A program made the position numbers and the translations under genes. Below, piece after piece: positions 1,861 to 60,016 of a stretch of DNA of 64,000 bases. Under the pieces are notes generated by a model. The model did not search any database. It was given only the letters and a program-made list of their open reading frames with translations, and was not told the DNA's origin. How positions within the stretch are numbered: position 1 is the first letter of the stretch; the number at the start of each line of letters is the position of its first letter. This DNA is from an uncultured Gammaproteobacteria bacterium (GTDB taxonomy: Bacteria; Pseudomonadota; Gammaproteobacteria; Chromatiales; Chromatiaceae): contig CAWGNT010000026.1 in NCBI GenBank assembly GCA_963824085.1, positions 32,180-96,179 on the forward strand, written 5' to 3'.

Positions 1861-2738
1861 CGCCCGAGCCTACCGGTTTGCGTCCCCGTCCTCCGGGGCC
1901 AATGAGCGAGTGTCGCGCGCTCGTGACCCGCGAGGTCGCGATGGGTCTCGATGTCCACATAGCCGGCAGCGGCGAGAATCCCTCGTACCGCAGGGCCCTG
2001 GTCGTAGCCGTGCTCCAGGACGACCAGTCCTCCCGGATGTAGACGGGTGGTGGCCTCGGCGGCAAGACGACGGATCGTACCGAGACCGTCCGGCCCGCCA
2101 ACGAGGGCGGAGCGCGGCTCGAAGCGGAGGTCGCCTTGTGTCAGGTGCGGGTCCGCCTCCGCGATGTACGGGGGATTGCTGATCACCGCGTCGAGGGACC
2201 CGGGTGCGATAGCTTCCAGCCAATCGCCGCGCACGACCGGGGCGTTGCCGGGAGCGAAGCGGCGGAGGTTGTCCTGGGCGATCAGTGCAGCGGCCGCACC
2301 GTGCTCGGTAGCGATGAGCCACCAGTTGGGCCGCTCGTGGGCGATAGCCGCCGCGATCGCCCCGCTGCCGCTGCCGGCATCGGCGACCTTCAGCGGCCGT
2401 GCCGCCGGCAGCCGCGCAAGGACGAGCGCCACCAGCAGCTCGGTCTCCGGGCGAGGGATCAGGGTATCGGGCGTCACGCGCAGCTGCAGCGACCAGAAGT
2501 CCTGGTAACCCCGAATATAGGCGATAGGCTCACCGTTGCGGCGCCTATCCACCAGCGTCCAATAGGCTCCGAGGGTCGCCGGCTCCAGTGCTCGGTCCGG
2601 CCAGGTGAGGAGCCGGGTCCTCGAGAGGCCGGTTGCCTGCGCGAGGAGGAGCTCTGCTTCGAGGCGAGGCGCCGCGTCCGGAAGATGCGCGAGCCGGTCA
2701 GCCGCCTTGCAGAGGGTGGTGCCGATGCTCGGGTCCAC
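1857..2738 (-). CDS. prmC: release-factor glutamine N5-methyltransferase
   Basis: 293 aa with SAM motif DAGSGSGAI and catalytic NPPY; sits downstream of prfA as in many proteobacteria. Confidence 0.9.
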   Translation of the reverse strand: MDPSIGTTLCKAADRLAHLPDAAPRLEAELLLAQATGLSRTRLLTWPDRALEPATLGAYWTLVDRRRNGEPIAYIRGYQDFWSLQLRVTPDTLIPRPETELLVALVLARLPAARPLKVADAGSGSGAIAAAIAHERPNWWLIATEHGAAAALIAQDNLRRFAPGNAPVVRGDWLEAIAPGSLDAVISNPPYIAEADPHLTQGDLRFEPRSALVGGPDGLGTIRRLAAEATTRLHPGGLVVLEHGYDQGPAVRGILAAAGYVDIETHRDLAGHERATLAHWPRRTGTQTGRLGR

Positions 2739-2862
2739 AGGTGCAGAGCTCCTCGTGAATGCCCTTCTCCTTGTTGAATAGCCGGAACGCCGAGCGGCGA
2801 CCCGGTCGCTGTGAGGCGCAGCCGAGATTGGGTGCCAATCGCTTTATTTCCCGCGGGAGGGG

Positions 2863-3942
2863 TCAGTCGGACATCATCGCAGCCAGCTGGTCTGCCTGAT
2901 ACTCCCTTGAGAGCGGGTCGATCACTTGGTCCAGATGGCCTAGCATGATTTCTTCAAGCTTATAGAGGGTGAGATTGATGCGGTGGTCCGTGACCCGGTT
3001 CTGCGGGAAGTTGTAAGTACGGATGCGCTCCGAGCGATCGCCGCTGCCTACCTGGAGCCGTCGGGACTGGGCCTGCTCCGAAGTTTGCGCTTCCTGGGCC
3101 TGCGATAGGAGCTTGGCTTGAAGCAGTGACAGGGCGCGAGCCTTGTTCTTGTGTTGGGAACGCTCGTCTTGACACTCGACGACAATCCCGGACGGTAGGT
3201 GGGTGATGCGTACTGCAGAGTCCGTCTTGTTGACGTGCTGACCCCCCGCACCGGAGGAGCGGTAGGTGTCGACACGCAGGTCGTTGCCGTTGATCTCGAC
3301 CTCGTCGATGGCCTCCACTTCGGGCAGCACGGCAACCGTGCAGGCGGAGGTGTGGATGCGGCCCTGCGACTCGGTCTCCGGGACCCGCTGCACGCGATGG
3401 GTGCCGGGTTCGAACTTGACCCGTGAGTACACGCCGTCGCCCGCGATCCGGAGCACCAGCTCTTTGTACCCGCCGAGCTCGCCCTCGCTCTGGCTGATCG
3501 ACTCGACCCGCCAGTCGCGGGCCTCCGCATAGCGCATATACATCCGTGCGAGGTCGGCGGCGAACAGGGCCGCCTCGGCTCCCCCGGTGCCGGCCCGAAT
3601 CTCGAGGAAGACGTTGCGGTGGTCGTTGGGGTCGGGAGGCACCAGCAGGCGGTGCATTTCCGGTTCCAGCGCGTCCCGTCGAATGCGGGCGGCCGCGATC
3701 TCCTCGCGGGCGAGGGCTGCCATCTCCGGGTCTGCCAGCATCTCCTCAGCGCCCGCGATCTCTTCCTCGATGGCCCGGTAGCGGCGATAGGTGTCGACAA
3801 GGGCCTCGATCTGGGCATACTCCCTGCTCAGCTCGCGGAATCGCCGTTGATCCCCCTGCGTCTCAGGCTCGGCCAGCAGCGCCGTGATCTCGCTGAAGCG
3901 CTCTGACACCCGCTCCAGCTTGTCCTGAATGGAGGGGTTCAT
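2863..3942 (-). CDS. prfA: peptide chain release factor 1
   Basis: 359 aa with GGQ motif ([11 protein letters not shown]) and a PxT-type recognition tripeptide ([14 protein letters not shown]). Confidence 0.95.
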
Positions 3943-5210
3943 GACCGGACGTCGGCGCTCTTGGTGAGCTGCAACAGCTCGTTGGCCGCCTCGAGGAGCT
4001 CCGCGCGCCCTTCTCTCCCCGCTTGGCGAAGGCGCTCGCTGGGGGTGTGCAGCAGCTTGTTGGTCAAGGTGTGGGCGAGAAAGCCGATGACCTCCTCGGG
4101 CGCCTTGCCCGACTGCAGCTGGCGCAGGGCGCGCGCGACCACCTCATCGCGGATCAGCTCGGCGCCGCGGCGGTAATCCTGGATGAGGGTGACCGCGTCC
4201 AGGGAGCGCAGCCATGCCATGAACTCCTCGGTGTGGAAGTCCACGATCTCCGCCGCCGCCTCGGCCGCCGCCTGACGCGAGCGCATGCCTTCGTCTACGA
4301 CCCCCTGCAGGTCGTCGACCGTGTATAGATAGACGTCGTTCAGGTCCGACACCTCGGGCTCGATATCCCGCGGCACCGCAATATCCACCATGAAGATGGG
4401 GCGGTGCTTGCGTCGCTTGAGCGCACGTTCCACGGCGCCCTTGCCGAGGACAGGCAGGGGGCTGGCGGTCGAGGAGATGAGGATGTCGGCCTCGGGCAGG
4501 TGGTTGGCGAGCTCGGTGAGCGCAATGGCGTAACCATTGAACTGCGCAGCCAGGGTATGGGCACGCTCCACGGTGCGGTTGGCGACGACGATACGGCCGA
4601 CGCCGTGCTGGTGGAGGTGACGGGCGGCGAGCTCGATCGTTTCGCCGGCGCCGATGAGCAGTGCGGTCTGATCGGAGAGGTCGCTAAAGATTTGGCGTGC
4701 CAGGCTGACCGCAGCGAAGGCGATGGAGACCGGGCTGTTCCCTATTGCGGTGTCGGTGCGTACCTGTTTGGCGACGGAGAAGGCGTGCTGGAAGAGGCGG
4801 CCGAGCAGCTTGCCGGTGGCCCCGCTGTCGCAGGCCGATAGGAACGCCGCTTTCACCTGGCCAAGGATCTGCGGCTCGCCGAGGACCATGGAATCGAGAC
4901 CGCAGGCGACTCGTAGCAGGTGTGCAACGGCGTTACGGTCCAGGTACGTGTAAAGATACGGGTCGAGGCGCTCCGGGTCGAGGCCGTGAAAGTGTCCGAG
5001 CCAGGGCGCTACCGGTGCGTCCTCGGTGGCATTCAGCGCACAATAGATCTCGGTCCGGTTGCAGGTCGAGACGATCACTCCTTCGCGGACATGCGGATGC
5101 TCCGTTAGGCTTCGCAAGGCGCCCACGAGGATGTCCGGACCAAACGAAATGCGCTCGCGCACATCTACGGGTGCAGACTTGTGGTTGAGACCGAGGACGA
5201 GAATCGTCAT
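3939..5210 (-). CDS. hemA: glutamyl-tRNA reductase
   Basis: ORF 3939..5306. Start moved to ATG at 5210 ([19 protein letters not shown], the typical HemA N-terminus). Active-site region VSTCNRTE. Overlaps prfA by 4 nt. Confidence 0.9.
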
Positions 5211-5396
5211 GGATTCGTGCGGGTGAGTTGAACCAGTCAATTGTTTTTCATCGCCGAAGCGGATGCAAGCCGTAGCGAGCGTGCAGTTATGGCGATCCGG
5301 TAACACGAATCCCCACTCAGGGCGATTTTAGCCGCGGAACTGTGCGGTTATACTTGAGTCAATTCTTTAGTTGTTTTGCACTCGCTCCTCAGTCCT

Positions 5397-7181
5397 ATGA
5401 AGTCCCGTGCGCGACTCTCTGGTCTTTCCGCCGTCCTGTTTGCGGCAGCTCTCGCGTCGGCTACGTGTGCGACCGATGCCGTTGCGGACAGCTCGACAAC
5501 CGTTAAGCAGACGGCCGTCCCAGATGGCTCGGTGCAGCCCGCCCCAGTGCAAGCTCGCCCTAAGCTGAAGCCGCCTAGGGAGCTGACTCCTGATCTGGTC
5601 TATTCCGTGCTGGTTGGTCAGATTGCCGCACAGCGCGGCGACCAGCGCATGGCGTTCACCCATTTCCTCCATGCAGCACAGCTGGCGGTGTCTCCGGATC
5701 TCGCCGAGCTTGCGACGCGCTCTGCCCTCGCGTTAGGCGACCGGGACGCGGTGCAACGGTCGCTCGACATCTGGCTCGAGCTCGCCCCCGAATCCCTCGC
5801 GGCACATCAGATTGCGGCCTACGCGTACTTGGAGGCCGACGACGTCCCCGGCGCCTTGAAGCACCTGCGGCAGGTCATCACGCTAGCCGGTAAGGAGGGG
5901 CGCGACGGCTTCATGCGGGTCGCAAGGCTCATCTCAAAGTTGCCCTCGCCCGAGCGACGTCTCGAGGTCATGAAGGCGCTGACGGCCGACCAATCTCAGA
6001 ACGCCGACGCCTGGTTTGCAACCGCGATGGTTGCTGCGGGAGCGGAGCGTTACGACGAGGCGGTCGAGGCGGCACGACGGGCCTCCGACTTGCGTCCGGA
6101 TTGGAACGAGCCGCGTGTCTTTCTGGTGCGCGTCCTCGTGGCTCAAGGCAAGAGCGACAAGGCGCGGGAAACCGCTGAGGCCTTTGTGGCCAAGAACCCG
6201 GACGACCATGCGCTGCGCCTTCTGTACGCTCAGCTCCTCGTTGAGGAGCAGGACTTCTCCCACGCTCGCAACGTCTTTGAGTACTTGCTTCGGGACAAGC
6301 CAAAGGAGCCGGATGTTCTCTTCGCCCTTGGCGTGCTCTCGCTGCAGCTCGACGATCTGGCCGCCGCACGGCAGTACTTCACGCGACTTCGGGACACTGG
6401 CAAGCGGCAGGGGGACTCCGCTTATTACCTGGGTCAGGTCGAAGAGATGGCCAAGAACGTGGAGACGGCGGTGTCGTGGTACGGCCGCGTCGAGGGTGAG
6501 CACGCCCTGGATGCCCAAGTGCGGATCGCCAGGGTACGTGCCGAGCAGGGCGATGTCGGGCGGGCGCGAGAGATCCTGCAGCAGCTGCGTGATCAGTACC
6601 CGGATGATGCGGTCAGCCTCTACCTGGCGGAGGCGGAGATCCTGCGCGGTATCAAGCAACCCCAAGAGGCGATGCGGGTATACGACCAGGCTATCGCAGC
6701 GAATCCCGGCGACGCAGACCTCCTTTATGCGCGCGCCTTACAGGCGGTCGCAATCGATCGAATGGACATCCTGGAGAGGGACCTGAAAACGATCATCGAG
6801 AATGACCCTCAGCACGCGGACGCCCTCAACGCGCTAGGCTACTCGCTGGCCGATCGCACTGAGCGCTACGACGAGGCGCTTTCCTATATCAAGCGGGCGC
6901 TGGCCCTCAAGCCCGATGATCCGGCCGTGCTGGATAGCATGGGTTGGGTGCAATTCCGCCTGGGCCACAAGAAGGAGGCGCTGAAGTACCTGCGCAGGGC
7001 TGCCGACAAGATGCCGGACGGTGAGATCGCAGCGCATCTGGGCGAGGTCCTGTGGTCGATGGGCCAGCACGATCAGGCCCAGGCCGTTTGGGACAAGGCG
7101 CTGACCGAGAATCCGGATCACGAATACCTGCTTAAGGTGATCGGTCGCCACCGCGTGACCAAGTCCGACGCCCAGCCTTGA
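5397..7181 (+). CDS. secreted/lipoprotein-like TPR-repeat protein
   Basis: ORF 5376..7181 with signal-like N-terminus (MKSRARLSGLSAVLFAAALASATC) and many TPR-like repeats. Occupies the position of the TPR gene that precedes lolB-ispE in pseudomonads. ATG at 5397 preferred over TTG at 5376. Confidence 0.75.
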   Translation: MKSRARLSGLSAVLFAAALASATCATDAVADSSTTVKQTAVPDGSVQPAPVQARPKLKPPRELTPDLVYSVLVGQIAAQRGDQRMAFTHFLHAAQLAVSPDLAELATRSALALGDRDAVQRSLDIWLELAPESLAAHQIAAYAYLEADDVPGALKHLRQVITLAGKEGRDGFMRVARLISKLPSPERRLEVMKALTADQSQNADAWFATAMVAAGAERYDEAVEAARRASDLRPDWNEPRVFLVRVLVAQGKSDKARETAEAFVAKNPDDHALRLLYAQLLVEEQDFSHARNVFEYLLRDKPKEPDVLFALGVLSLQLDDLAAARQYFTRLRDTGKRQGDSAYYLGQVEEMAKNVETAVSWYGRVEGEHALDAQVRIARVRAEQGDVGRAREILQQLRDQYPDDAVSLYLAEAEILRGIKQPQEAMRVYDQAIAANPGDADLLYARALQAVAIDRMDILERDLKTIIENDPQHADALNALGYSLADRTERYDEALSYIKRALALKPDDPAVLDSMGWVQFRLGHKKEALKYLRRAADKMPDGEIAAHLGEVLWSMGQHDQAQAVWDKALTENPDHEYLLKVIGRHRVTKSDAQP

Positions 7182-13807: not shown

Positions 13808-13960
13808 GGCTTTCCGAGGTCGGGTTGCGCGCGCCGGGGGACGCCGTGGATTCTTCCCTGAAGGCTTGACGGCCGCCTCCCTGCGACCGACACCCCCGGC
13901 GCGCGCAACCCGACCCCTTCGGGCGAAAGGCGAAAAAAATCGCGTGAGCTGAGTAGAGCT
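13808..13960 (+). repeat. palindromic repeat element, copy A (perfect 23-bp stem, 52-nt core)
   Basis: GGTCGGGTTGCGCGCGCCGGGGG (13818-13840) pairs perfectly with CCCCCGGCGCGCGCAACCCGACC (13893-13915). The core between them is homologous to copies at 52.9, 54.1, 56.9, 59.4 and 60.1 kb. Confidence 0.75.
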
Positions 13961-15945: not shown

Positions 15946-17136
<1,191 letters not shown>

Positions 17137-32964: not shown

Positions 32965-34155
<1,191 letters not shown>

Positions 34156-50712: not shown

Positions 50713-52311
50713 CTACCGGTAGTCGCCGGCCTTAAGGCGGTACGTCCTGAGCTTCATGTGCACGGCACGGGGCGTGATCCCCATTGCCCTGGCCACGGCG
50801 CTGACGTTGCCGCGAAAGCGTGTCAGCGCGTCTTCGATCACCTTGGCTTCAACGTCGCGCGCCGCGTCCCTCCTTATCTGCCGCAAGGGAATTGATTGGT
50901 CGCTGCCGGGTGGATCGCTTCCCTGTGGGGCCTCGACCGAGAGGTCATCGATAACCTGCCCCTGACAGAACAAGAAGGCGTGCTCCAGCACATTCTCCAG
51001 CTCTCGGACGTTTCCTGGCCAATGGTAGCCGAGCACTTTCCTCCAAGCGCGCTCGCCCAGCGCTTTCGCCGGTTGGTGGTATCGTTCCGAGAGGCGCCGC
51101 AGGACGTGAGTCACCAGGGCGGACAGGTCACTGCGGCGTTCCCGGAGCGGGGGGATATGTATGGGTACGACGTTTACCCGATAGTAGAGGTCCGTGCGGA
51201 AGGCCCCGGAGGCGACGCGATCCTTGATATCCTGATTTGACGCGGCAATGATTCGGACGTCCGTTGTCAGGGGCTGTCTTCCGCCCACCCTCTCGAACTC
51301 ACCCTCCTGCAGCACGCGTAAGAGCCTGGCCTGCGCGGATACGGGCAAAGAGTCGATCTCATCAAGAAACAGAGTGCCGCCGTTCGCACGTTCGAAGAAC
51401 CCATGGTGCACGGTATGGGCATCGGTAAATGCGCCTTTCTCGTGCCCGAACAGCGCGCTCTCGATGAGACTCTCGGGAATCGCCCCGCAGTTGACGGCAA
51501 CGAGATCTCGATCCGCCCGGAGACTCAGAGCATGAATTGCCCGCGCAATGACCTCCTTCCCCACGCCCGTCTCGCCAGTGACCAAGACGGTCGCTGGAGT
51601 TGGGGCCACGATCGCGACGGCCTCGAGGGCGGCCTTCATTGCTGCAGATTCGGCGACGACTGTTGGCCTCTCGCGCCGAGCGGCCGCACCCCGTTGCCGA
51701 GGCGGACACCAAGCGCTTGCGAGCTTCGATTCCACGCGGGCCGTTATCTCCGCCGAGGCGGATCTTGAGATGATGGTGTCCCCGGTGTACTGGTATTCGT
51801 CGCCGTGCTTGTCCTTCGCCATGTCTCGGTCCGTGTACACGCAGACGTCACACGACCCGTCGCCGGTCGCAATCCGCTTGCGCAGCTCGACCTTGGCGTA
51901 GCCGAAGTTCCGGGCCGCGATCGCACCGAACACGCTCGCCGTCATGCGGCACAGCTCGGGGGCTTGACTGACTGTCTCCCCGAACGGGCAGCGTTCATTG
52001 CGGACCCGGATGACGCCAGGGTCGCTCGGCTCCCGCGAGAATTCGCCGCCGATACGATTCTTGATGTTGAGTATGACCGCAGCGTATTCCTCGGGCGTGA
52101 TCTCGCCGGAGAGGCCGAGCTGCTGTCGTGCGACCGCCTCCAGGCAGTGGCTGGAGGCTAGCCCCAGGTGCTCGATATAGGTCCTCTTTTGCTGGGCACT
52201 CTTGAAGCAGTGCTGCTCGGCGGCCCTGATGCTGTGGGCGATGAAGGACTGGAGAAAGGAAACCTGATCAAGGCGGAGCGACGCATCGATATCCATCGAT
52301 TGGACTTCCAT
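50713..52311 (-). CDS. sigma-54-dependent transcriptional activator (NtrC-family EBP) with a Cys-containing V4R-like sensory domain
   Basis: ORF 50713..52467. Walker A GETGVGKE, Walker B GTLFLDEI, sigma-54 contact loop present as GAFTDA, C-terminal Fis-type HTH ([20 protein letters not shown]). N-terminal domain has RCPFGE...PELCRM...[10 protein letters not shown]. Start chosen at ATG 52311. Confidence 0.85.
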
Positions 52312-52580
52312 TGGTAGCGCGGTCTCTTCAACAAGCTTAGCCGAAGCTGAGCGGTACCGAATCCCAGCTATGGCTGTTTGCGGATGGTCGGGTGCGGGTA
52401 GGCGGCCGGGCGCCAACGAGCCTCCACGGACGGAGTCGCGGTGAGTTCCGCAGCTGCCGCCTGGCATCGCAGGGGAGCGTTGGCGCAGGTCGCCTACCCG
52501 AAAAGGCGGGTGATCCTGGTGCCGTATGCGCTACCGTCGGAGATCAGGGCATTCAGTATGATGTGGCTTCCAGCGGCCCA

Positions 52581-52808
52581 TCAGTGGCAACAGGGGCAGT
52601 CCTTGCCATGGCCGTTTTGCTCCGGTTGGAGCGAACGGACGGCCTCTTCACGTCCCCTGGCCATACTTCCGTGGACAGCCGGGGCCGATAGAATTAACCG
52701 ATTCGTTTCGGCACCGCAAGCTGGACATGCCGGCCTGTCGGCATGTAGGGGATGCCAGAGCTCGAAGCGGTTGTTGCACGCGGGGCAGGCGTAGTTGTAC
52801 GTAGGCAT
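52581..52808 (-). CDS. FmdB-family zinc-ribbon protein
   Basis: 75 aa, MPTYNYACPACNNRFE...CPACGAETNRLILSAP; two CxxC pairs plus a C-terminal CPCCH. Confidence 0.7.
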   Translation of the reverse strand: MPTYNYACPACNNRFELWHPLHADRPACPACGAETNRLILSAPAVHGSMARGREEAVRSLQPEQNGHGKDCPCCH

Positions 52809-52920
52809 TCGGTTTCACCTGGCTTTGAGATTGGGGTCGAAGACGGAGGGTGTCGCACGAGGCGATAGGCCCCGCATGCGGGGCGGAGCGCGCATATACA
52901 CGGCTCATATCTCGTTTTCG

Positions 52921-53066
52921 GTTCTCCGCGCTAAGGGGCCCGGAAGCTCGGTCGGGGGTGACGGCGGCACGGAGGATGCCATAAAGCCTACGAGGATGTA
53001 GTTACGGCGTTCCTCGGCGGGCGCAACCCGGCCCCGGAAAAGCGAAAGACCCAAGTACGAAACGTA
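52921..53066 (-). repeat. palindromic repeat element, copy D
   Basis: 52-nt core 52969-53020 is homologous to the reverse complement of the copy A/B cores. Right arm and flank TCCTCGGCGGGCGCAACCCGGCC-CCGGAAAAGCGAAAG; left arm degenerate. Confidence 0.6.
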
Positions 53067-53151
53067 TAACCTCCAAGAGGGTTCAGTGGAAACCGCCCCT
53101 GGATGAGTCGTGCCGGACCCACACCAGGGGCAATCGTCCTGCCTCTAAGCG

Positions 53152-53805
53152 CTATTCCCAACGGGGAGGCTGTTGACCGCTCACTCCGAACTGCGTGGCG
53201 AGGACGTCTGTCCGCGCCCGCTTCTCCGGGTCTTGCGTGGGCGGGCGCAGGCGGCGTGTCTCCACCTCCCAGACCCAGCCGCTGATGGTGACATCCTTTG
53301 GTATCAGGGGATGGTTTCTGAAGGTCTCGATGGTCTTCATGCACGCCGTATCGACGTCATCCATCATGCCGATCCATTTGGCGAACGCACCCTGGTCGAG
53401 CCGGAGCTCGGGTAACGTCGGATCCAGGGTTAGGTTGTCGATGTCGACGCCCTTGTCACGCAGCACCTTTTCTAGATCGGCGGCGTTCGCAGACAACATG
53501 CCGCACTGGGTATGCTGGACGATGACAATCTCCTTCGTGCCGAAGAAGTTGCAGGTCAGCATCGCCGAACGGATCGCATCGTCGGTGACTATGCCGCCCG
53601 CATTACGAAAACAATGCGCATCGCCGCCGCCCACCGGGGTGTCGACGCGAATACCGAGGGCCTCATCGACGGGCAAGCGCTCGTCCATGCAGGCGAGGAC
53701 CCACAAGCGGCGATTGTTGGGTCCCTCAGGTCCGTAACGGCGTCGAGTCGCCCAGTGGTCAAATTGTGTAGTTCTCGCCTCCAGTTCTTGCTTCAGCGTG
53801 GCCAT
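53152..53805 (-). CDS. beta-class carbonic anhydrase family protein, clade-D type (candidate CS2/COS hydrolase)
   Basis: 217 aa with zinc ligand motifs CxDxR (ACMDERL) and HxxC (HTQCG), plus RNAGGIVTDDAIRS, NFFGTKEI and RNHPLIPKDV. SD GAGGAGG upstream. Confidence 0.8.
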   Translation of the reverse strand: MATLKQELEARTTQFDHWATRRRYGPEGPNNRRLWVLACMDERLPVDEALGIRVDTPVGGGDAHCFRNAGGIVTDDAIRSAMLTCNFFGTKEIVIVQHTQCGMLSANAADLEKVLRDKGVDIDNLTLDPTLPELRLDQGAFAKWIGMMDDVDTACMKTIETFRNHPLIPKDVTISGWVWEVETRRLRPPTQDPEKRARTDVLATQFGVSGQQPPRWE

Positions 53806-53879
53806 TCTCCAAACCTCCTCGGGGATCGTGATGTGTCAGGTTCGCGTTCTGTGTTCGGATGCCGAACATCAGCATCTAA

Positions 53880-53895
53880 AGCACGCACTGTGCCA
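53880..53895 (-). promoter_or_regulatory. sigma-54 (-24/-12) promoter candidate for the hydrolase gene
   Basis: Minus-strand sequence TGGCACAGTGCGTGCT against consensus TGGCAC-N5-TTGCW. GG and GC are at the correct 10-nt spacing. It lies 75-90 nt upstream of the ATG, with an A/T-rich tract just upstream. Confidence 0.6.
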
Positions 53896-53952
53896 AAATA
53901 AAACACCTTGAAAAATCGGTAACTTAGGAAGGTGCGAAGCCTGTCCGTGAAG

Positions 53953-53962
53953 CGTTCGAACG
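53953..53962. repeat. 10-bp perfect palindrome CGTTCGAACG (candidate activator site)
   Basis: Read directly; centred about 60 bp upstream of the -24 element. Confidence 0.3.
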
Positions 53963-54084
53963 ACTTTGGCGCATGAGATCTCTGCTAACAGGTTGAAAAA
54001 CGCCAGAAATCGTGATGACGCGGAAACTTCGCAGTGTGAAGAAGAGCTTCGCAGGCTCTTGGACGGACGAAGAATGAGCTAATA

Positions 54085-54256
54085 CCGTTTCGATCTGGGC
54101 TCTTTCGTCTCCAGTGGACTGGCCGCTCCGACCGGGGGACGCCGTAAATACGTCCATGCAGGCTTGACGGCAGCCTTCCTGTTGCCGATACCCCTGGCGG
54201 GACCGGCCAGTCCCCTCTGGTCCGGAAGCGCAAAAGTCGGGCGAGCTCGGAATAGG
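54085..54256 (+). repeat. palindromic repeat element, copy B
   Basis: Arms 54116-54138 / 54191-54213 give 19 Watson-Crick pairs plus 1 GU out of 23. 52-nt core 54139-54190. Both outer flanks present. Confidence 0.75.
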
Positions 54257-54266
54257 ACATCGACAT

Positions 54267-54283
54267 AGTACAAAATTTGTACT
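54267..54283. repeat. 17-bp palindrome AGTACAAA-A-TTTGTACT (candidate operator/UAS)
   Basis: Read directly; immediately right of repeat copy B in the divergent promoter region. Confidence 0.3.
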
Positions 54284-55009
54284 GGCAGGCAGGTGCGCGA
54301 GACCGGTGTTGACGCGGCGCAGCGAGCAGGCGGGGAATCAGACCACAGCTGTTGGAATATGAGGCGGGTGCACGCGTGTCCATGAAGCGCTGATCGATGG
54401 TAGGTGCCAACGCTTCGCGCGGCGCGATGGCATGGAGGTCGTCGGCGTTTGCCATTCGCATGCAGACCACCCAGCGGAGCCATCGGAGCCGGACCGAAAT
54501 TGCGTTGAGGATGGGTTGACGGACGCCAGATCATCGACAGATCGTCGATCGACCCGGGAGAAATGGATTTCTTGGTCTATATTAATTTCGTGGCGTGGGG
54601 TGTGGAATAAGAAGCACGTGTGAAACGCCACACCTGGGGGAAAACGAGAAGATCCATTGCCGACAGACAGGTCCCGTAGGCATCGGGATCGGCGGCGGGC
54701 CCGCGGCAATCCCTCCCCGGGACGAGGAGACCCGGGAACAGTCGGCACGTCGCCGAACACTTTGCGCTCAAGAAGCGAGCAGCGAGCAACGCGATCGTCC
54801 TCTGGCGGTGGCCGCCCAAGGCCCTAATTTCGTTGTGCACGCTCGACGTGCTTGCGGATTGGTCAGTGCTTGCTAAACCGTCGGGAACTGCGCTTTGGGC
54901 GCTGTCTGCAAGGCATCTTGCGCCGTCTGAGGGTGTTTGATCGACGTCCCGACGGTCCTGCAATCTCGGCATGCCACTCACCTGCCGGTGAGGCCGGGAG
55001 AAGGGGCAA

Positions 55010-55025
55010 TGGTGCCGTCGTTGCC
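55010..55025 (+). promoter_or_regulatory. weaker sigma-54 promoter candidate for the exporter operon
   Basis: TGGTGCCGTCGTTGCC has GG and TTGC at consensus spacing, but the -24 box is TGGTGC. It lies 60 nt upstream of ATG 55085; AGGAGA SD at 55071. Confidence 0.4.
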
Positions 55026-55084
55026 CTGTTCCGTGGCATCAAAGGGGAAATCGAAGACCTAACCAACCGAAGGAGAATCGACGT

Positions 55085-56479
55085 ATGGCAAAAAACGTCA
55101 TGGTCGCTGAGGACGAAGAGGCCCTCCAAAGCATGGGGTGGCGGGAGATCTGGTTGAAGGAGGACTGGTGGGCGATCTGGCTCGGCCTGGGTATCGTGAT
55201 CGTGGCCTATCTGTTCTTCGCTAACGGCGCCTCGATCAAGTGGATCGCGATCACGCCGGGGAAATGGTCGACGTTTGATCAGGTGCTCGGCGACTTCAGG
55301 TCGCACATCATCCAATATATCGCCCAGTTCATCCTGTGGCTCGTCGTGTTCAGCGTGAGCATGCGCATCATGGGCCACAAGATGAGCGAGTTCATACCCG
55401 CGTTTGTGTTTATCTACTTGGTCTCGATCCTGATCTTCATGGTCGGGGCCTGGGACCAGGCGCATCACTACAACCTGGAGCCGCCGTTGGTCGCCTTGCT
55501 GCTGGGTATGGTGATCTCCAACCTCATTGGCCTGCCGCGCTGGATGGATACCGGGTTCCGTGTCGAGTACTACATCAAGGTAGGCATCGTGCTGCTGGGT
55601 GCCACCCTGCCGTTCACCCTGGTGATCTGGGCAGGCCCGGTGGCGATCTTCCAGGCATCGATCGTCTCGATCACCACTTTCCTCGTTATCTACTTCGTGG
55701 GGCGCCGCTTGGATCTCGATCGGCGCCTTTGCGCGACGCTCGGCGCCGGTGGAGCGGTCTGCGGAGTGTCCGGTGCCATCGCCATCGCCGGTGCCGTGGG
55801 CGCCAAGAAGGAACATGCACCGATCGCCATCACCATGGTGATCGGCTGGGCGATCGTGATGATCTTCTTCCTACCTCTGGTCTCACGTACGTTGCAGTTG
55901 TCGACCGGCGTCGCCGGTGCCTGGATCGGCACCTCGGAGTTCGCCGATGCAGCCGGTTTCGCCGCCGCTCAGGCCTACGGCAACCTGGCCGGAAACGTGC
56001 CGGGGATCAGCGGCACGGCCGATCAGTCGGTGTGGGCTTTCACCCTGATGAAGGTGGTAGGCCGCGACATCTGGATCGGGATCTGGGCCTTCGTGCTGGC
56101 CATCATCGCGACCACTCGCTGGGAGACCGAGACGGGCAGCAAGCCGCAGGCGGCAGAGATCTGGTGGCGCTTCCCGAAGTTCGTCATCGGTTTCGCGCTG
56201 GCTTCGATTCTGGTCACCTGGGTCACCAGCGGCTACTCCTTCGAGGACTTCAACAAGATCGTCAAGCCGGAGTTCGTGGGGCCGGTGAAGGCATTGCGCA
56301 CCTGGGCCTTCATCTTCTGCTTCTTTTCCATCGGGCTGACCACCCGCTTCCGCGAGCTGGCCAGTGCCACCGGTAAGCCATTTTGGGCGTTCACCGTGGG
56401 TGTGGGATTCAACGTGGCATTGGGCTTCATACTTTCGGCGTTGGTGTTCGGCACGTACTGGACAAACCTCGCCCATTGA
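55085..56479 (+). CDS. YeiH/UPF0324-family membrane protein (putative sulfate exporter family)
   Basis: 464 aa polytopic protein. Family-like motif LGAGGAVCGVSGAIAIAGAV (compare E. coli YeiH IGAGSSICGAAAVLA) and GTSEFADAAGFAAAQ. Confidence 0.7.
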   Translation: MAKNVMVAEDEEALQSMGWREIWLKEDWWAIWLGLGIVIVAYLFFANGASIKWIAITPGKWSTFDQVLGDFRSHIIQYIAQFILWLVVFSVSMRIMGHKMSEFIPAFVFIYLVSILIFMVGAWDQAHHYNLEPPLVALLLGMVISNLIGLPRWMDTGFRVEYYIKVGIVLLGATLPFTLVIWAGPVAIFQASIVSITTFLVIYFVGRRLDLDRRLCATLGAGGAVCGVSGAIAIAGAVGAKKEHAPIAITMVIGWAIVMIFFLPLVSRTLQLSTGVAGAWIGTSEFADAAGFAAAQAYGNLAGNVPGISGTADQSVWAFTLMKVVGRDIWIGIWAFVLAIIATTRWETETGSKPQAAEIWWRFPKFVIGFALASILVTWVTSGYSFEDFNKIVKPEFVGPVKALRTWAFIFCFFSIGLTTRFRELASATGKPFWAFTVGVGFNVALGFILSALVFGTYWTNLAH

Positions 56480-56549
56480 TGGAGTCGACGGAGGTAGCGC
56501 CGGCTCCGCCGGCGCTACCCCAGTTTCCGAAACGAGTGAGACAAATGGG

Positions 56550-56756
56550 ATGGACAAGCTCGCGCACACCTGCCTCTCCTGCCGTCATTTCCGCAACACG
56601 CCGCGCTACCTGGAGTCGGTCTACAAGGGACTGTCGAGCCTCGGCTCCGCCTACGCGTCGGTGCGCAAAGACGACGGAATCTGCCTAGAACGGGACCTGT
56701 ATTTGTCGGCATCGGCATCCTGCGAACGCTATGCGGCACGCAAACCGGCGCAGTGA
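56550..56756 (+). CDS. hypothetical 68-aa four-cysteine protein
   Basis: Internal ATG of ORF 56364..56756: MDKLAHTCLSCRHFRNTPRYLESVYKGLSSLGSAYASVRKDDGICLERDLYLSASASCERY. Starts 70 nt after the exporter stop. Confidence 0.45.
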   Translation: MDKLAHTCLSCRHFRNTPRYLESVYKGLSSLGSAYASVRKDDGICLERDLYLSASASCERYAARKPAQ

Positions 56757-56793
56757 GCCGGCCCTAGCCGGACCAAGCAAACGCCATTGGTTT

Positions 56794-56816
56794 GGTGACT
56801 AGTCTCAGGTGACTAG
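56794..56816 (+). repeat. tandem direct repeat GGTGACTAG-N5-GGTGACTAG
   Basis: Read directly in a locally low-GC patch. Function unknown. Confidence 0.5.
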
Positions 56817-56849
56817 AGTCGTGGCTCAGCAGGAACGTCCAGTAGGCGA

Positions 56850-56950
56850 GTCGGCGGGACGGTCGGCGCGGGCGCCGTCGAGCCTACATGGACGTATTCA
56901 CAAGGAACATCTGCCCTTGGGGCATTGCCGCCCACCGAAAGCCGGACGCC
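56850..56950 (-). repeat. palindromic repeat element, degenerate copy E
   Basis: GGTCGGCGCGGGCGCCGTCGAGCCTACATGGACGTATTCAC resembles the core of copies B, C and D. Arms poorly preserved. Confidence 0.4.
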
Positions 56951-57145
56951 TCGTCTGGTGATGGGTGGTCCCGCCCAGCCTGGCCCCATCGAACGTCACC
57001 TCCAACAAGTGCCCTTTCGTATTGCGCTTGCCTAATGCGCAATGCCGACTAGATTTCTCAGGTATGAGGGAGACGTAACGGAGTCGATTGGGACATCGTC
57101 GCTAGAGCTTATTCGTTCTTCACTTTGGGTCCATTGGAGGCCATC

Positions 57146-57952
57146 ATGAGCATCACACGCAGGTTGTTTGTCGGGGCAGCCGTCAGCGGCGCCGCGGTTG
57201 TGACGAGTGTTGCTGCTGGTGTTCTTACATCCCGCGGGGTTAGAGCAGCGCTCCCGGCCGGGACCTTTTTTGCCGCATCCCCGGCCGAGGCCATCGGTGC
57301 AGTTCTTGGTACTGACCAGAGCACGCCGGACCCGGCCGTACAGCTGGGCATTACAGACACGGTAGAGATGGCGGACATGGTGCCTCTATCCGTGACGACG
57401 ACGTTGGACAACGTGGAATCGATCACCATCGTCGCCGATAAGAACCCCAACCCCATCATTGCATACTACAGATTGGACCCGCAGTTGCAGCCGTACGTTG
57501 CGACGCGCGTGCGCTTGGCCGAGTCGGGCGACGTTCACGCGTTGGTCAAGTCTGGTGGAATTGTCCATCGAGCCACCAAGAACGTGAAAGTTGCCATTAG
57601 TGGCTGCGGCGACCCAGAGCCTGGGCCAAGCGATATCGTGATGTCCAATCGCTTCTTGATTAGGACGGCGAAGGATGGCGACGGCGTCGTAGTCCGTGCG
57701 CTGATCCATCACCCGATGACGCCGCCACGCAAGGACCCGGCGCGAGGGCTTCCGGTGTCCGGCCAGTTCATCCAAGAAGTCAAGGCGCAGGCCAACGGCA
57801 AGACCGTGCTAAACAGCGACTGGAGCGCGGGCGTGTCTCAGGATCCCTATCTGTCGTTCAAGATGCGGCACGCGGCGCAAGGCGACATCATCCGCATCAC
57901 TTGGACTGACAATGCGGGACACAGCGCCTCATCGGAGGTGACGGTCAGCTAG
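57146..57952 (+). CDS. soxYZ: fused SoxY-SoxZ sulfur-carrier protein with Tat signal
   Basis: ORF 57125..57952. ATG at 57146 lies 5 nt after GGAGG. Twin-arginine signal SITRRLFVGAA. The SoxY carrier motif VKVAISGCG is followed by linker DPEPGPSD, then a SoxZ-like domain (VVVRALIHHPMTPPRKD...ITWTDNAGHSASSEVTVS). Confidence 0.8.
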   Translation: MSITRRLFVGAAVSGAAVVTSVAAGVLTSRGVRAALPAGTFFAASPAEAIGAVLGTDQSTPDPAVQLGITDTVEMADMVPLSVTTTLDNVESITIVADKNPNPIIAYYRLDPQLQPYVATRVRLAESGDVHALVKSGGIVHRATKNVKVAISGCGDPEPGPSDIVMSNRFLIRTAKDGDGVVVRALIHHPMTPPRKDPARGLPVSGQFIQEVKAQANGKTVLNSDWSAGVSQDPYLSFKMRHAAQGDIIRITWTDNAGHSASSEVTVS

Positions 57953-58089: not shown

Positions 58090-58736
58090 CGCATTGACTT
58101 CTCCAACCAGTGAAAAACCAGGTGCTCTTTGCGTTCTTAAAGGGCCAAATGCTTTTCTTTGGTTCATCGGTTTGGCGACCAGGTTGGCCAGGCGATCAGG
58201 AAGGCCAGCCAGCAGGTGCCGAAGCTGGTTGGCACCGAGCAGGACTCGGAGATCGTTTTCGCCTCGCGCGGCACCGGATCCGACTCGACTGCCATTTTGT
58301 CGGCGCTGAAGGCCCAGCCCGAGCGCAAGGAGATCATCGCCACAGTCGTAGAGCCTCCGGCCGTGCCGAACTGCTTTGTCACGGGTGATCCGGGCCACCG
58401 GTTGCCGAACACCAGCAACGTCGCTTTCGAGTACATCGAGGGCGAGGCTACCTTATTGCTGCTGAACAAGAGAGGGAGTGCCACCTCGTCCGGCTTAGTC
58501 CGCACCTCGGGTTCGCCGGAGCCTTCGCACGTCATGCGTGCTATGGGAGCTCCGTTGACCGTCGCCCACGGGACGATCCGTTTCTCCCTGTCCCGCTACA
58601 ACTGGATGGAGGAGATCGAAAGGGTCATCTCGGCCGTGCCGCCGCTGTTGTGCAACTGCGTAAGCTCTCGCCGTATTGGAGCCAGAATGGACCGCTGGAG
58701 AACCGGCAGACGGCGTTTGTGCCGGCCTATGCATGA
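58090..58736 (+). pseudogene. nifS: decayed nifS-type cysteine desulfurase relic
   Basis: Pieces in three frames align with NifS as I remember it: FGDQVG...SDSTAILSALKAQPERKEIIATVVEPPAV joins directly to FVTGDPGHRLPNTSNVAFEYIEGEA...EPSHVMRAMG...IRFSLSRY. This removes about 240 codons, including the PLP lysine. The catalytic loop reads SSGLVRTSGS (Cys lost). The C-terminal QLRKLSPYWSQNGP is in another frame. Confidence 0.8.
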
Positions 58737-58899
58737 CGGGTTTGAAGGTCAACGGGTATCCCTCCGACCGGACCAGGAGACGTGACGGCGCTCGGCGCCA
58801 AACAGCCTCTCTGGCCCCTTGAATGATGAGGAACCAGGCTTGACTACGGCCTGAGATGAGGGATGAAGAGCGTCCGAGGGGATCATGCGCCACTATTGC

Positions 58900-59371: not shown

Positions 59372-59520
59372 ACTTGGCTCTTTCGCTTCTCCACCGGAGG
59401 GGTCGGGTCGCACACGCCGGGGTGTCGGCAGCAGGGAGGCTGCGGTCCAGCCTTCAGGACGAATTCACGGCGTCCCGCGGCGGGTGCAACCCGGCCACGA
59501 AAAACGAAACGCCCGAATAG
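59372..59520 (-). repeat. palindromic repeat element, copy C
   Basis: Arms 59401-59422 / 59474-59496. The 51-nt core 59423-59473 is the reverse complement of the copy A core type. Both outer flanks present. Confidence 0.75.
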
Positions 59521-59587: not shown

Positions 59588-60016
59588 TTACCGCCCTGAG
59601 CGGCGCGCATCGGAGTCTGCCGGTGGCGCCGCGTCGGATGGCCGGCAGGGATAGATCTGCGCGAGCATCTTGGTTACCACCGCGCTCGCATCCGCCGTGG
59701 GATCGGGATAGCGACGCAGCCGAGCAACGACCTTACGGACGGTGAGGTCGATTGTTTCGGTGTCAGGCACACACCAAGTCGGCGCGCCTTGGCCGACAAG
59801 ACGGGCATGACACGCGCACGGAGCGGCATACCACTCGCACATCGCCGCGTCGAGGCCGGTGTTGCCCTGGGCGAATCCGCTGTCGCAAATCGAGACCAGC
59901 TTCGCGACGGTGGGCCCCGCAGCAGCGCTCTGACCGAGCATAGACAAAGGTAGGAGCAAGACCGCTGCCACAGGGGCTGCGCGGCGAAAGGGACTGCGAA
60001 GGTTGCCTATGGTCAT
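59588..60016 (-). CDS. secreted cysteine-rich hypothetical protein
   Basis: 142 aa with a signal peptide (AAVLLLPLSMLGQSAAA) and 6 further Cys, ending in a YPC motif. Loosely reminiscent of Rap1a/Tai4-type periplasmic immunity proteins, but I cannot verify this. Confidence 0.5.
   Translation of the reverse strand: MTIGNLRSPFRRAAPVAAVLLLPLSMLGQSAAAGPTVAKLVSICDSGFAQGNTGLDAAMCEWYAAPCACHARLVGQGAPTWCVPDTETIDLTVRKVVARLRRYPDPTADASAVVTKMLAQIYPCRPSDAAPPADSDARRSGR

Follow-up and report, generated by a model that had tools for sequence, protein, structure and literature searches.

The window analysed here is a stretch of 64,000 nt from a metagenome-assembled genome (MAG) of the Chromatiaceae, and the region under study (positions 50713-57952 of the window) carries six genes that an earlier note had joined into a single pathway of sulfur metabolism. 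All six open reading frames (ORFs) were found where they had been placed, and the families assigned to the six proteins were upheld in Pfam, NCBIfam and PDB sequence searches. The region consists of two unrelated units: the left unit (50713-54052, minus strand), which codes for a homologue of carbon disulfide (CS2) hydrolase, a small FmdB-type protein and a sigma-54 activator, is conserved, and the genes on the right are chance neighbours. The features of the left unit are as follows.

53152-53805, minus strand: CS2-hydrolase-family homologue of clade-D beta-carbonic anhydrases, 217 aa (PDB match, alignment, invariant residues)
52581-52808, minus strand: FmdB-family zinc-ribbon protein, 75 aa (TIGR02605, PF09723)
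50713-52296, minus strand: sigma-54 enhancer-binding protein (the activator), 527 aa, with a MetOD1/V4R-like sensor, an AAA+ domain and a Fis-type helix-turn-helix (HTH) (Pfam, NCBIfam, homologues)
53880-53895, minus strand: sigma-54 -24/-12 promoter TGGCACAGTGCGTGCT, 90 nt upstream of the enzyme ATG (consensus match, conserved in relatives)
54036-54052 and 54016-54032: upstream activator sequence, a predicted activator binding site made up of the full palindrome GTGAAGAAGAGCTTCGC and a half-site (CTTCGC only), respectively

The conservation of the left unit was assessed in 160 related loci, of which 80 were enzyme-seeded (the best 80 loci of 327 matches in 185,579 species-representative genomes) and 80 were sensor-seeded (metagenome loci retrieved with an alignment restricted to the sensor domain). 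The trio of genes for the enzyme, the FmdB protein and the activator recurs in most of these independent loci, with Nitrosomonas, methanotrophs, Thiocapsa, Sulfuriferula and Acidithiobacillus among the carriers, and the full trio was present in Acidithiobacillus MAGs. According to the record titles, the 80 best enzyme loci comprise about 21 from Nitrosomonas/Nitrosomonadaceae, 8 from methanotrophs, 11 from Chromatiaceae and 8 from Sulfuriferula/Sulfuricella/Thiobacillus, the rest coming from Thiohalobacter and others. An activator gene is adjacent to the enzyme gene in 65 of the 80 enzyme-seeded loci, with the homology running into the sensor domain as far as query residue 57-69, and the FmdB gene is situated between the enzyme and activator genes, or after the enzyme gene, in 61 of them; the activator gene is divergent in Nitrosomonas and lies downstream elsewhere. 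In the sensor-seeded set the enzyme gene was found in 60 of 80 loci, 12 loci being too short to tell and 8 having room for the gene without carrying it. Because searches from the enzyme and from the sensor each recovered the other gene, the activator can be regarded as the dedicated partner of the enzyme. All-against-all clustering of the flanking ORFs revealed no further gene family common across lineages. To judge from these comparisons, the left unit is a widespread, self-contained cassette, and one that appears to move between lineages. The conservation of the whole neighbourhood in related genomes, proposed in the earlier note as a check on its pathway, was thus found for the left trio only; the YeiH-family, miniprotein and SoxYZ genes on the right were present in 0 of the 160 loci.

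The arrangement of sites before the enzyme gene points to control by sigma-54. The sequence TGGCACAGTGCGTGCT alone is one of 23 window-wide matches, with 27 expected by chance, and the weight given to it therefore comes from the equivalent sites kept in relatives and not from the window match itself. A -24/-12 site with at least 9 of 11 positions was present before the enzyme gene in 62 of 77 related loci, compared with 2.4% of 7,440 control windows. In plain k-mer enrichment the Nitrosomonas loci, being close relatives of one another, outweighed the rest, and this approach was replaced by a reading of diverse upstream regions combined with a control-window test. This reading gave a palindrome with the core GAAG-N5-CTTC, or GSGAAG-N5-CTTCSC in its fuller form, of which at least one copy occurred in 63 of 66 related loci (10% of controls) and at least two copies in 43 of 66 (0.6% of controls). 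Where two copies are paired, their spacing is, with few exceptions, exactly 20 bp, and they are found 77-160 bp upstream of the -24 element. In the window, the activator sequence is about 140 bp upstream of -24, and the half-site is 20 bp nearer to the promoter than the full palindrome. An IHF consensus with at most one mismatch was found between the palindromes and the promoter in 34 of 69 related loci, as against 5.1% of controls. The layout predicted from these sites is that of a classical enhancer-dependent promoter. The sigma-54 wiring that had been claimed for the enzyme gene is accordingly supported, with the promoter, the IHF-like site and the upstream activator site all phylogenetically conserved.

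Among all PDB sequences, the best match of the enzyme was the Acidianus CS2 hydrolase 3TEN (E=1.7e-52, 181 bits, query residues 9-191), and this alignment takes in both the N- and the C-terminal arms; in CS2 hydrolase, which forms a ring or catenane oligomer, these arms shut off the carbonic-anhydrase entrance. Identity to 3TEN was 53% across 174 aligned residues, from the N-terminal helix to the C-terminal strand. The scores of other PDB entries were far lower, with 85 bits for 3LAS, 70 for Rv1284 and 69 for the carbonyl sulfide (COS) hydrolase, or COSase, of Thiobacillus thioparus; clade-D carbonic anhydrases in general fell between 60 and 85 bits. To the COSase (3VQJ) the enzyme was 30% identical, with E=4.5e-18 across 78 residues only, and it does not qualify as a COSase orthologue; a genuine orthologue, encoded in the related locus L063, has E=9e-117 to 3VQJ. 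In the neighbour-joining tree the enzyme family joined 3TEN and was separated from the COSase, Rv1284 and the other carbonic anhydrases; the tree is a rough one, based on 80 shared columns and partial PDB sequences without bootstrap.

The residues of the active site agree with this placement. The zinc ligands (C39/H98/C101) and the Asp-Arg dyad (D41/R43) did not vary among 15 family members and correspond in the alignment to the CMDER and HTxCG motifs of 3TEN. The Phe-Phe motif (F87-F88, within NFFGT) was also invariant in the family and occurred otherwise only in 3TEN among the aligned sequences; at the same position the COSase has HLLNT, and the aligned carbonic anhydrases 3LAS, 5ZTP and Rv1284 have QLGT or LLGT. 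This motif, which lines the substrate tunnel, has been named as characteristic of CS2 hydrolase (PMC6382920). The enzyme is best placed with the CS2 hydrolase, and not with the COSase or the ordinary carbonic anhydrases, which upholds the CS2-hydrolase-like identity first put forward for it on both PDB scores and tree position. Compared with the Acidianus sp. A1-3 CS2 hydrolase (3TEN/3TEO; EC 3.13.1.5), it has the same clade-D beta-carbonic-anhydrase scaffold, Cys-His-Cys zinc site, Asp-Arg dyad and Phe-Phe motif, whereas the insertion and the C-terminal tail described below, the FmdB partner and the dedicated sigma-54 activator are additions of the window family. The COSase of T. thioparus THI115 (3VQJ; EC 3.13.1.7) belongs to the same clade of beta-carbonic-anhydrase-like sulfur-gas hydrolases, but differs in its low identity and in having HLLNT in place of NFFGT.

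The enzyme family is large, with 962 homologous 90%-identity clusters at E<=1e-10, the best 120 of which are 78-93% identical to the enzyme. An identity of about 80% is kept across very distant bacterial lineages, and this suggests either strong structural constraint or recent horizontal spread.

The activator is formed of an N-terminal MetOD1 domain, the central Sigma54_activat domain (PF00158, 229 bits) with its Walker A and B motifs, AAA_lid_14 and HTH_8. Its open frame reaches 52467, but the 57-codon extension (52297-52467) is not conserved and is probably untranslated; a start at Met58 (52296) is more likely, because homologues align only from residue 57-66 and the public call has 527 aa. 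The loop reads GAFTDA, a form found in 7 of 55 homologues, the other 48 having GAFTGA. The sensor matched MetOD1 in Pfam (E=1.3e-11), with no V4R match at E<=0.01, and gave no match to PDB sequences. In the phenol sensors MopR and PoxR, a cluster of three cysteines holds a structural zinc. Three cysteines of the sensor studied here (Cys103, Cys116 and Cys149) were invariant. According to PMC5847659, MetOD1 is kin both to the phenol sensors of the V4R type and to the gas sensors of the HNOB type, and it has the three-Cys cluster in common with V4R. This kinship and the invariant cysteines are consistent with a sensor that detects a small hydrophobic molecule directly. Among 1.84 billion representative clusters, 359 matched the sensor at E<=1e-3, which makes its family a small one.

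The activator resembles XylR, DmpR, MopR and PoxR, whose V4R sensors respond to small hydrophobic molecules, in joining a sensor, an AAA+ domain and a Fis-type HTH without a receiver domain and in the three-Cys cluster of its sensor, and the systems are also alike in having tandem palindromic activator sites 100-160 bp upstream, an IHF site and a -24/-12 promoter. It differs from them in that its sensor matches MetOD1 and its target is a sulfur-gas hydrolase instead of an aromatic-degradation operon. FisR of Cupriavidus and Acinetobacter, which responds to sulfide and persulfide, is another sigma-54 activator tied to sulfur stress, and sulfide:quinone reductase (SQR), one of its targets, is targeted also in some relatives of the module; the core targets of FisR, however, are pdo, sqr and tauE, whereas the near-universal target of the window-type activator is the hydrolase.

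The third member of the trio, the FmdB protein, scored 54 bits against TIGR02605 (cutoff 31). Its alignment shows an N-terminal CxxC...CxxC, a conserved core SAPAVHGxMARGRE and a C-terminal His/Cys tail of the form HG(P/K)xCxCxH. It could, as a speculation, be a zinc chaperone of the enzyme or a co-regulator of the activator.

Genes found around the module in relatives give an indication of the process it serves. A COSase orthologue adjoins the trio in two lineages and is preceded by its own palindrome(s) and -24/-12 promoter (L063, 8583-9251; L141, 8566-9222); the L141 copy is 67% identical to the L063 copy, and the orthologue in relatives is about 80% identical to the T. thioparus COSase, as estimated by eye from the alignment. 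SQR genes lie inside or beside the operon, type I (E=6e-176 to 3SZ0) in 9 loci and type II, accompanied by TusA and DsrE, in 6 loci. The gene order is enzyme, FmdB, SQR, activator in L160 (SQR at 2069-3358) and enzyme, FmdB, activator, SQR in L161 (SQR at 4420-5709), and L117 (4312-6155) provides a further example of SQR in or beside the hydrolase operon. The SQR gene of L157 (7228-8717) has its own tandem palindromes and the -24/-12 site TGGCATATTGTGTGCT, and no hydrolase gene was seen in the 5 kb read on either side of it. Beside the trio of L040, a separate PAS-type sigma-54 activator is encoded divergently next to sqr, and L027 has a second sigma-54 activator, with an untyped sensor, in the matching position. 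Genes for OmpW-family outer-membrane proteins adjoin the module in 19 loci (e.g., L040, 12966-13598; L160, 6876-7499; L149, 7171-7776); a sigma-54-like promoter was present in 11 of 15 that were checked, with a palindrome at a fixed 65-69 bp upstream of -24 in ten and 85 bp upstream in L117. Small hydrophobic molecules pass through the channels that OmpW, AlkL and OprG form. The accessory genes taken together suggest a possible route on which a hydrophobic molecule is taken up and then hydrolysed by the CS2-hydrolase-like enzyme and the COSase, after which the sulfide is oxidised or relayed. The logic of hydrolysis followed by sulfide handling that had been attributed to the six genes is echoed in this way in relatives, by OmpW, COSase, SQR, TusA and DsrE, but the right-hand genes of the window have no part in it. 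None of the COSase-orthologue, SQR, TusA, DsrE and OmpW-family genes was found in the window.

The genes to the right, and a repeat copy that lies within the left unit, are listed below.

55085-56479, plus strand: YeiH-family (PF03601) membrane protein, 464 aa (Pfam); adjacent to the module, not part of it
56550-56756, plus strand: 4-Cys miniprotein, 68 aa, without a Pfam family; partner of the YeiH-family protein, not part of the module
57146-57952, plus strand: fusion of SoxY and SoxZ with a twin-arginine translocation (Tat) signal, 268 aa, orphan (Pfam, NCBIfam); not part of the module
52993-53054, no strand assigned: repeat copy between the enzyme and FmdB genes (repeat search)

The YeiH-family protein matched PF03601 with 153 bits, above the cutoff, and TIGR00698 with 81 against a cutoff of 233; sulfate export by this family is a database name. 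The miniprotein belongs to a family of 78 clusters with invariant C8, C11, C45 and C58 and the motif ASVRKDDGIC, and it directly follows a YeiH-family gene in Sideroxyarcus emersonii and in another MAG, in unrelated surroundings. Since the pair recurs in unrelated surroundings, the YeiH-family protein and the miniprotein can be considered a conserved unit of their own. In the closest relative with a readable context, whose enzyme is 90% identical, a GGDEF gene occupies the right-hand position.

The true start of the SoxYZ gene is the ATG at 57146, 21 nt downstream of a TTG, and the protein from this start is identical to one of a Chromatiaceae MAG (ENA ERZ25039500 / GCA_049581905.1). Such fusions are rare (43 clusters). 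Like the Sox carrier SoxYZ, the protein carries a Tat signal and both a SoxY and a SoxZ domain, and its carrier cysteine is conserved; it differs in being a single fused chain whose cysteine falls inside the molecule, in an invariant GCGD motif, and not on a free GGCGG arm at the C-terminus. It remained below the NCBIfam cutoffs of both true SoxY and the known fused type (TIGR04488, 100 vs 125; TIGR04557, 93 vs 140). A paralogue in the same MAG, 76% identical (L086, 8001-8807), stands alone among genes for a reverse transcriptase, a HigB-type toxin, a recombinase and NTPases, in what is a mobile or defence island. No soxAX, soxB or soxCD genes were present among the called genes within 10 kb on either side of SoxYZ, and the description of the carrier as an orphan is therefore correct. 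Just downstream, a 208-aa ORF (58159-58785) matches only parts of a class-V aminotransferase (cysteine-desulfurase-like) and is probably a gene remnant, and a gene for a Rap1a-family (type VI secretion immunity-like) protein follows at 59588-60016, downstream of the region.

The two units are separated by a gap (53806-55084; 1,279 nt), which the earlier note had rightly called gene-free: none of the four ORFs in it has a Pfam match, and the public record calls no gene there. The idea of a hidden gene in this gap was therefore rejected. The Rfam scan of the window detected tRNAs only, with no match in the gap, and the scan for sigma-70 promoters and terminators was uninformative, with results at or below shuffle expectation. 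The site TGGTGCCGTCGTTGCC (55009-55024), 60 nt before the YeiH gene, had been taken for a weaker sigma-54 promoter of the exporter. It agrees with the consensus at 8 of 11 positions, a level met by 12.5% of control 300-nt windows; of two homologous loci, one has no such site and the other has a chance-level 8-of-11 match; and no palindrome occurs within about 840 bp. The YeiH promoter was therefore rejected as a member of the regulon on the grounds of statistics, non-conservation and the lack of an activator site.

Short interspersed intergenic repeats, resembling repetitive extragenic palindromes or miniature inverted-repeat transposable elements (REP/MITE-like), were located at 13811-13918, 52993-53054, 54132-54181, 56874-56901 and 59398-59517. 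The copy at 54132-54181 sits inside an inverted repeat with 26-nt arms (54113-54216). The gap between the enzyme and FmdB genes is 343 nt, widened by the repeat copy, as compared with roughly 20-110 nt in most relatives. Repeats between several of the genes fit local rearrangement. Elsewhere in the window, tuf (the EF-Tu gene) is present in two copies (15946-17135 and 32965-34154) that are 99.8% identical over 1,190 nt, an ordinary tuf duplication.

The interpretation that we consider probable is that the left unit is an inducible cassette, in which a dedicated sigma-54 activator would switch on an enzyme hydrolysing CS2 and/or COS, and that the genes on the right are unrelated to it. The MetOD1/V4R-type sensor would be triggered by a small sulfur compound, most likely CS2 or COS and less likely the sulfide derived from them. 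The activator would bind the GAAG-N5-CTTC palindromes about 140 bp upstream of the -24/-12 promoter and open this promoter using ATP, possibly assisted by DNA bending by IHF, as the sites in relatives suggest. The promoter would then drive the zinc enzyme of the CS2 hydrolase family, which is predicted to convert CS2 and/or COS to H2S and CO2, and also the small FmdB-type zinc-ribbon protein with its His/Cys tail. With only the core trio in this genome, the cassette is likely to serve detoxification or scavenging and not a full energy pathway. The second unit would be made up of the YeiH-family protein with its own 4-Cys partner and the orphan Tat-exported SoxYZ fusion, neighbours by chance.

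Several observations weigh against this interpretation. The second activator site of the window is a half-site, and its IHF-like site is weak. The repeat copy lies between the enzyme gene and the FmdB and activator genes, and because this element separates them, co-transcription of the enzyme with FmdB and the activator is uncertain in this genome. The enzyme has two features that the Acidianus enzyme lacks: a six-residue insertion (VDTPVGGG, residues 53-60) next to the metal site and, at its C-terminus, a tail of 26 residues (192-217, RARTDV..QFGV..QPxRW) that is conserved in the family. The AlphaFold2 model of the enzyme, made from a 15-sequence alignment, had a predicted local distance difference test (pLDDT) score of 56, too poor for the substrate tunnel or the oligomer to be read from it, and the characterised Acidithiobacillus thiooxidans CS2 hydrolases may lie outside this subfamily. 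Since activators can work from as far as about 1 kb away, an effect on the YeiH promoter is conceivable. Finally, the SQR genes of the regulon fit a sulfide signal equally well as CS2 or COS.

This last point leads to an explanation that we regard as unlikely, namely that the product and not the substrate is sensed: H2S or sulfane sulfur would modify the conserved cysteines or the metal site of the sensor, in the manner of FisR, and the trio would be one arm of a sulfide-stress regulon. With FisR there is already a case in which sulfide induces sqr and pdo through a sigma-54 activator (PMC7315123), the sensor has its three invariant cysteines, and about 15 loci have SQR within the operon or next to it, the SQR of L157 having its own tandem activator site and promoter. 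On the other hand, the three-Cys cluster is a general V4R/MetOD1 feature (PMC5847659), the hydrolase is the near-universal target and SQR an occasional one, and the presence of OmpW-family porins in the regulon suggests that the molecule is imported and hydrophobic. Moreover, induction of a sulfide-producing enzyme by sulfide would create a positive loop with no obvious benefit. The enzyme could also be an ordinary carbonic anhydrase for CO2/bicarbonate balance in autotrophs, with a sigma-54 control that reflects carbon or nitrogen status. It has a Pfam Pro_CA match and the database name 'beta-class carbonic anhydrase', and many carriers are autotrophs (nitrifiers and sulfur oxidisers). However, the Pfam match is weak, with 35 bits as opposed to the 181 bits of the CS2 hydrolase match, and CS2 hydrolases alone have the Phe-Phe motif (PMC6382920); those that have been characterised are without carbonic-anhydrase activity (PMC12035519). 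The gene is, in addition, co-regulated with the COSase orthologue, SQR and OmpW, and not with RuBisCO or carboxysome genes, and we hold this explanation to be highly improbable.

A further explanation is the six-gene sigma-54 pathway of the earlier note, in which CS2 or COS would be detected and hydrolysed, SoxYZ would take up the sulfur for oxidation, and YeiH would export the sulfate; we think it most improbable. The genes do adjoin across a shared 1.28-kb intergenic region, there is a -24/-12-like site before the YeiH gene, and in relatives the hydrolase does come together with genes for the handling of sulfide, although not with these. Yet the right-hand genes are missing from all the related loci, their place being taken by the GGDEF gene in the closest relative; the YeiH-family gene and the miniprotein gene occur together in unrelated contexts, and the SoxYZ paralogue stands alone. 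The site before the YeiH gene is at chance level and has no palindrome near it. SoxYZ is a periplasmic protein, whereas the N-terminus of the hydrolase, judged by eye, shows no signal peptide, and soxAX, soxB and soxCD are not among the called genes within 10 kb of SoxYZ.

The kind of enzyme is known, and few CS2 hydrolases and COSases have been characterised so far (PMC12035519); the regulatory module around it is apparently undescribed. In literature searches, the coverage of which was incomplete, no paper was found that ties CS2/COS hydrolases to a regulator, to sigma-54 or to FmdB, in agreement with the earlier statement that no such regulator or linkage had been described, and nothing relevant was found, within the same incomplete coverage, on CS2/COS hydrolases in nitrifiers or methanotrophs.

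CS2 and COS are major sulfur gases of the atmosphere and of soils. As Hyman et al. reportedly described in 1990, CS2 is a classic inhibitor of ammonia oxidation; background to this is given in PMC6091914. As a tentative proposal, which we consider possible rather than probable, the activator may be the first dedicated CS2/COS receptor, in which the gas-sensing part would be a MetOD1/V4R/HNOB-like domain holding a three-Cys metal site. If this holds, the cassette may shield nitrifiers and methanotrophs that depend on copper monooxygenases from CS2 poisoning, let sulfur oxidisers harvest sulfide and add to the microbial sink of COS and CS2, and the FmdB-type protein may be a new zinc chaperone or co-sensor. 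The proposal is testable in cultured carriers, including strains of Nitrosomonas, Methylobacter, Methylomonas, Thiocapsa, Sulfuriferula and Thiohalobacter, and the activator, together with its defined promoter and activator site, is a candidate biosensor. The database label 'carbonic anhydrase' would also be corrected for about a thousand protein clusters. The presence of the cassette in 327 of 185,579 species-representative genomes would make it a widespread inducible response to CS2 and COS.

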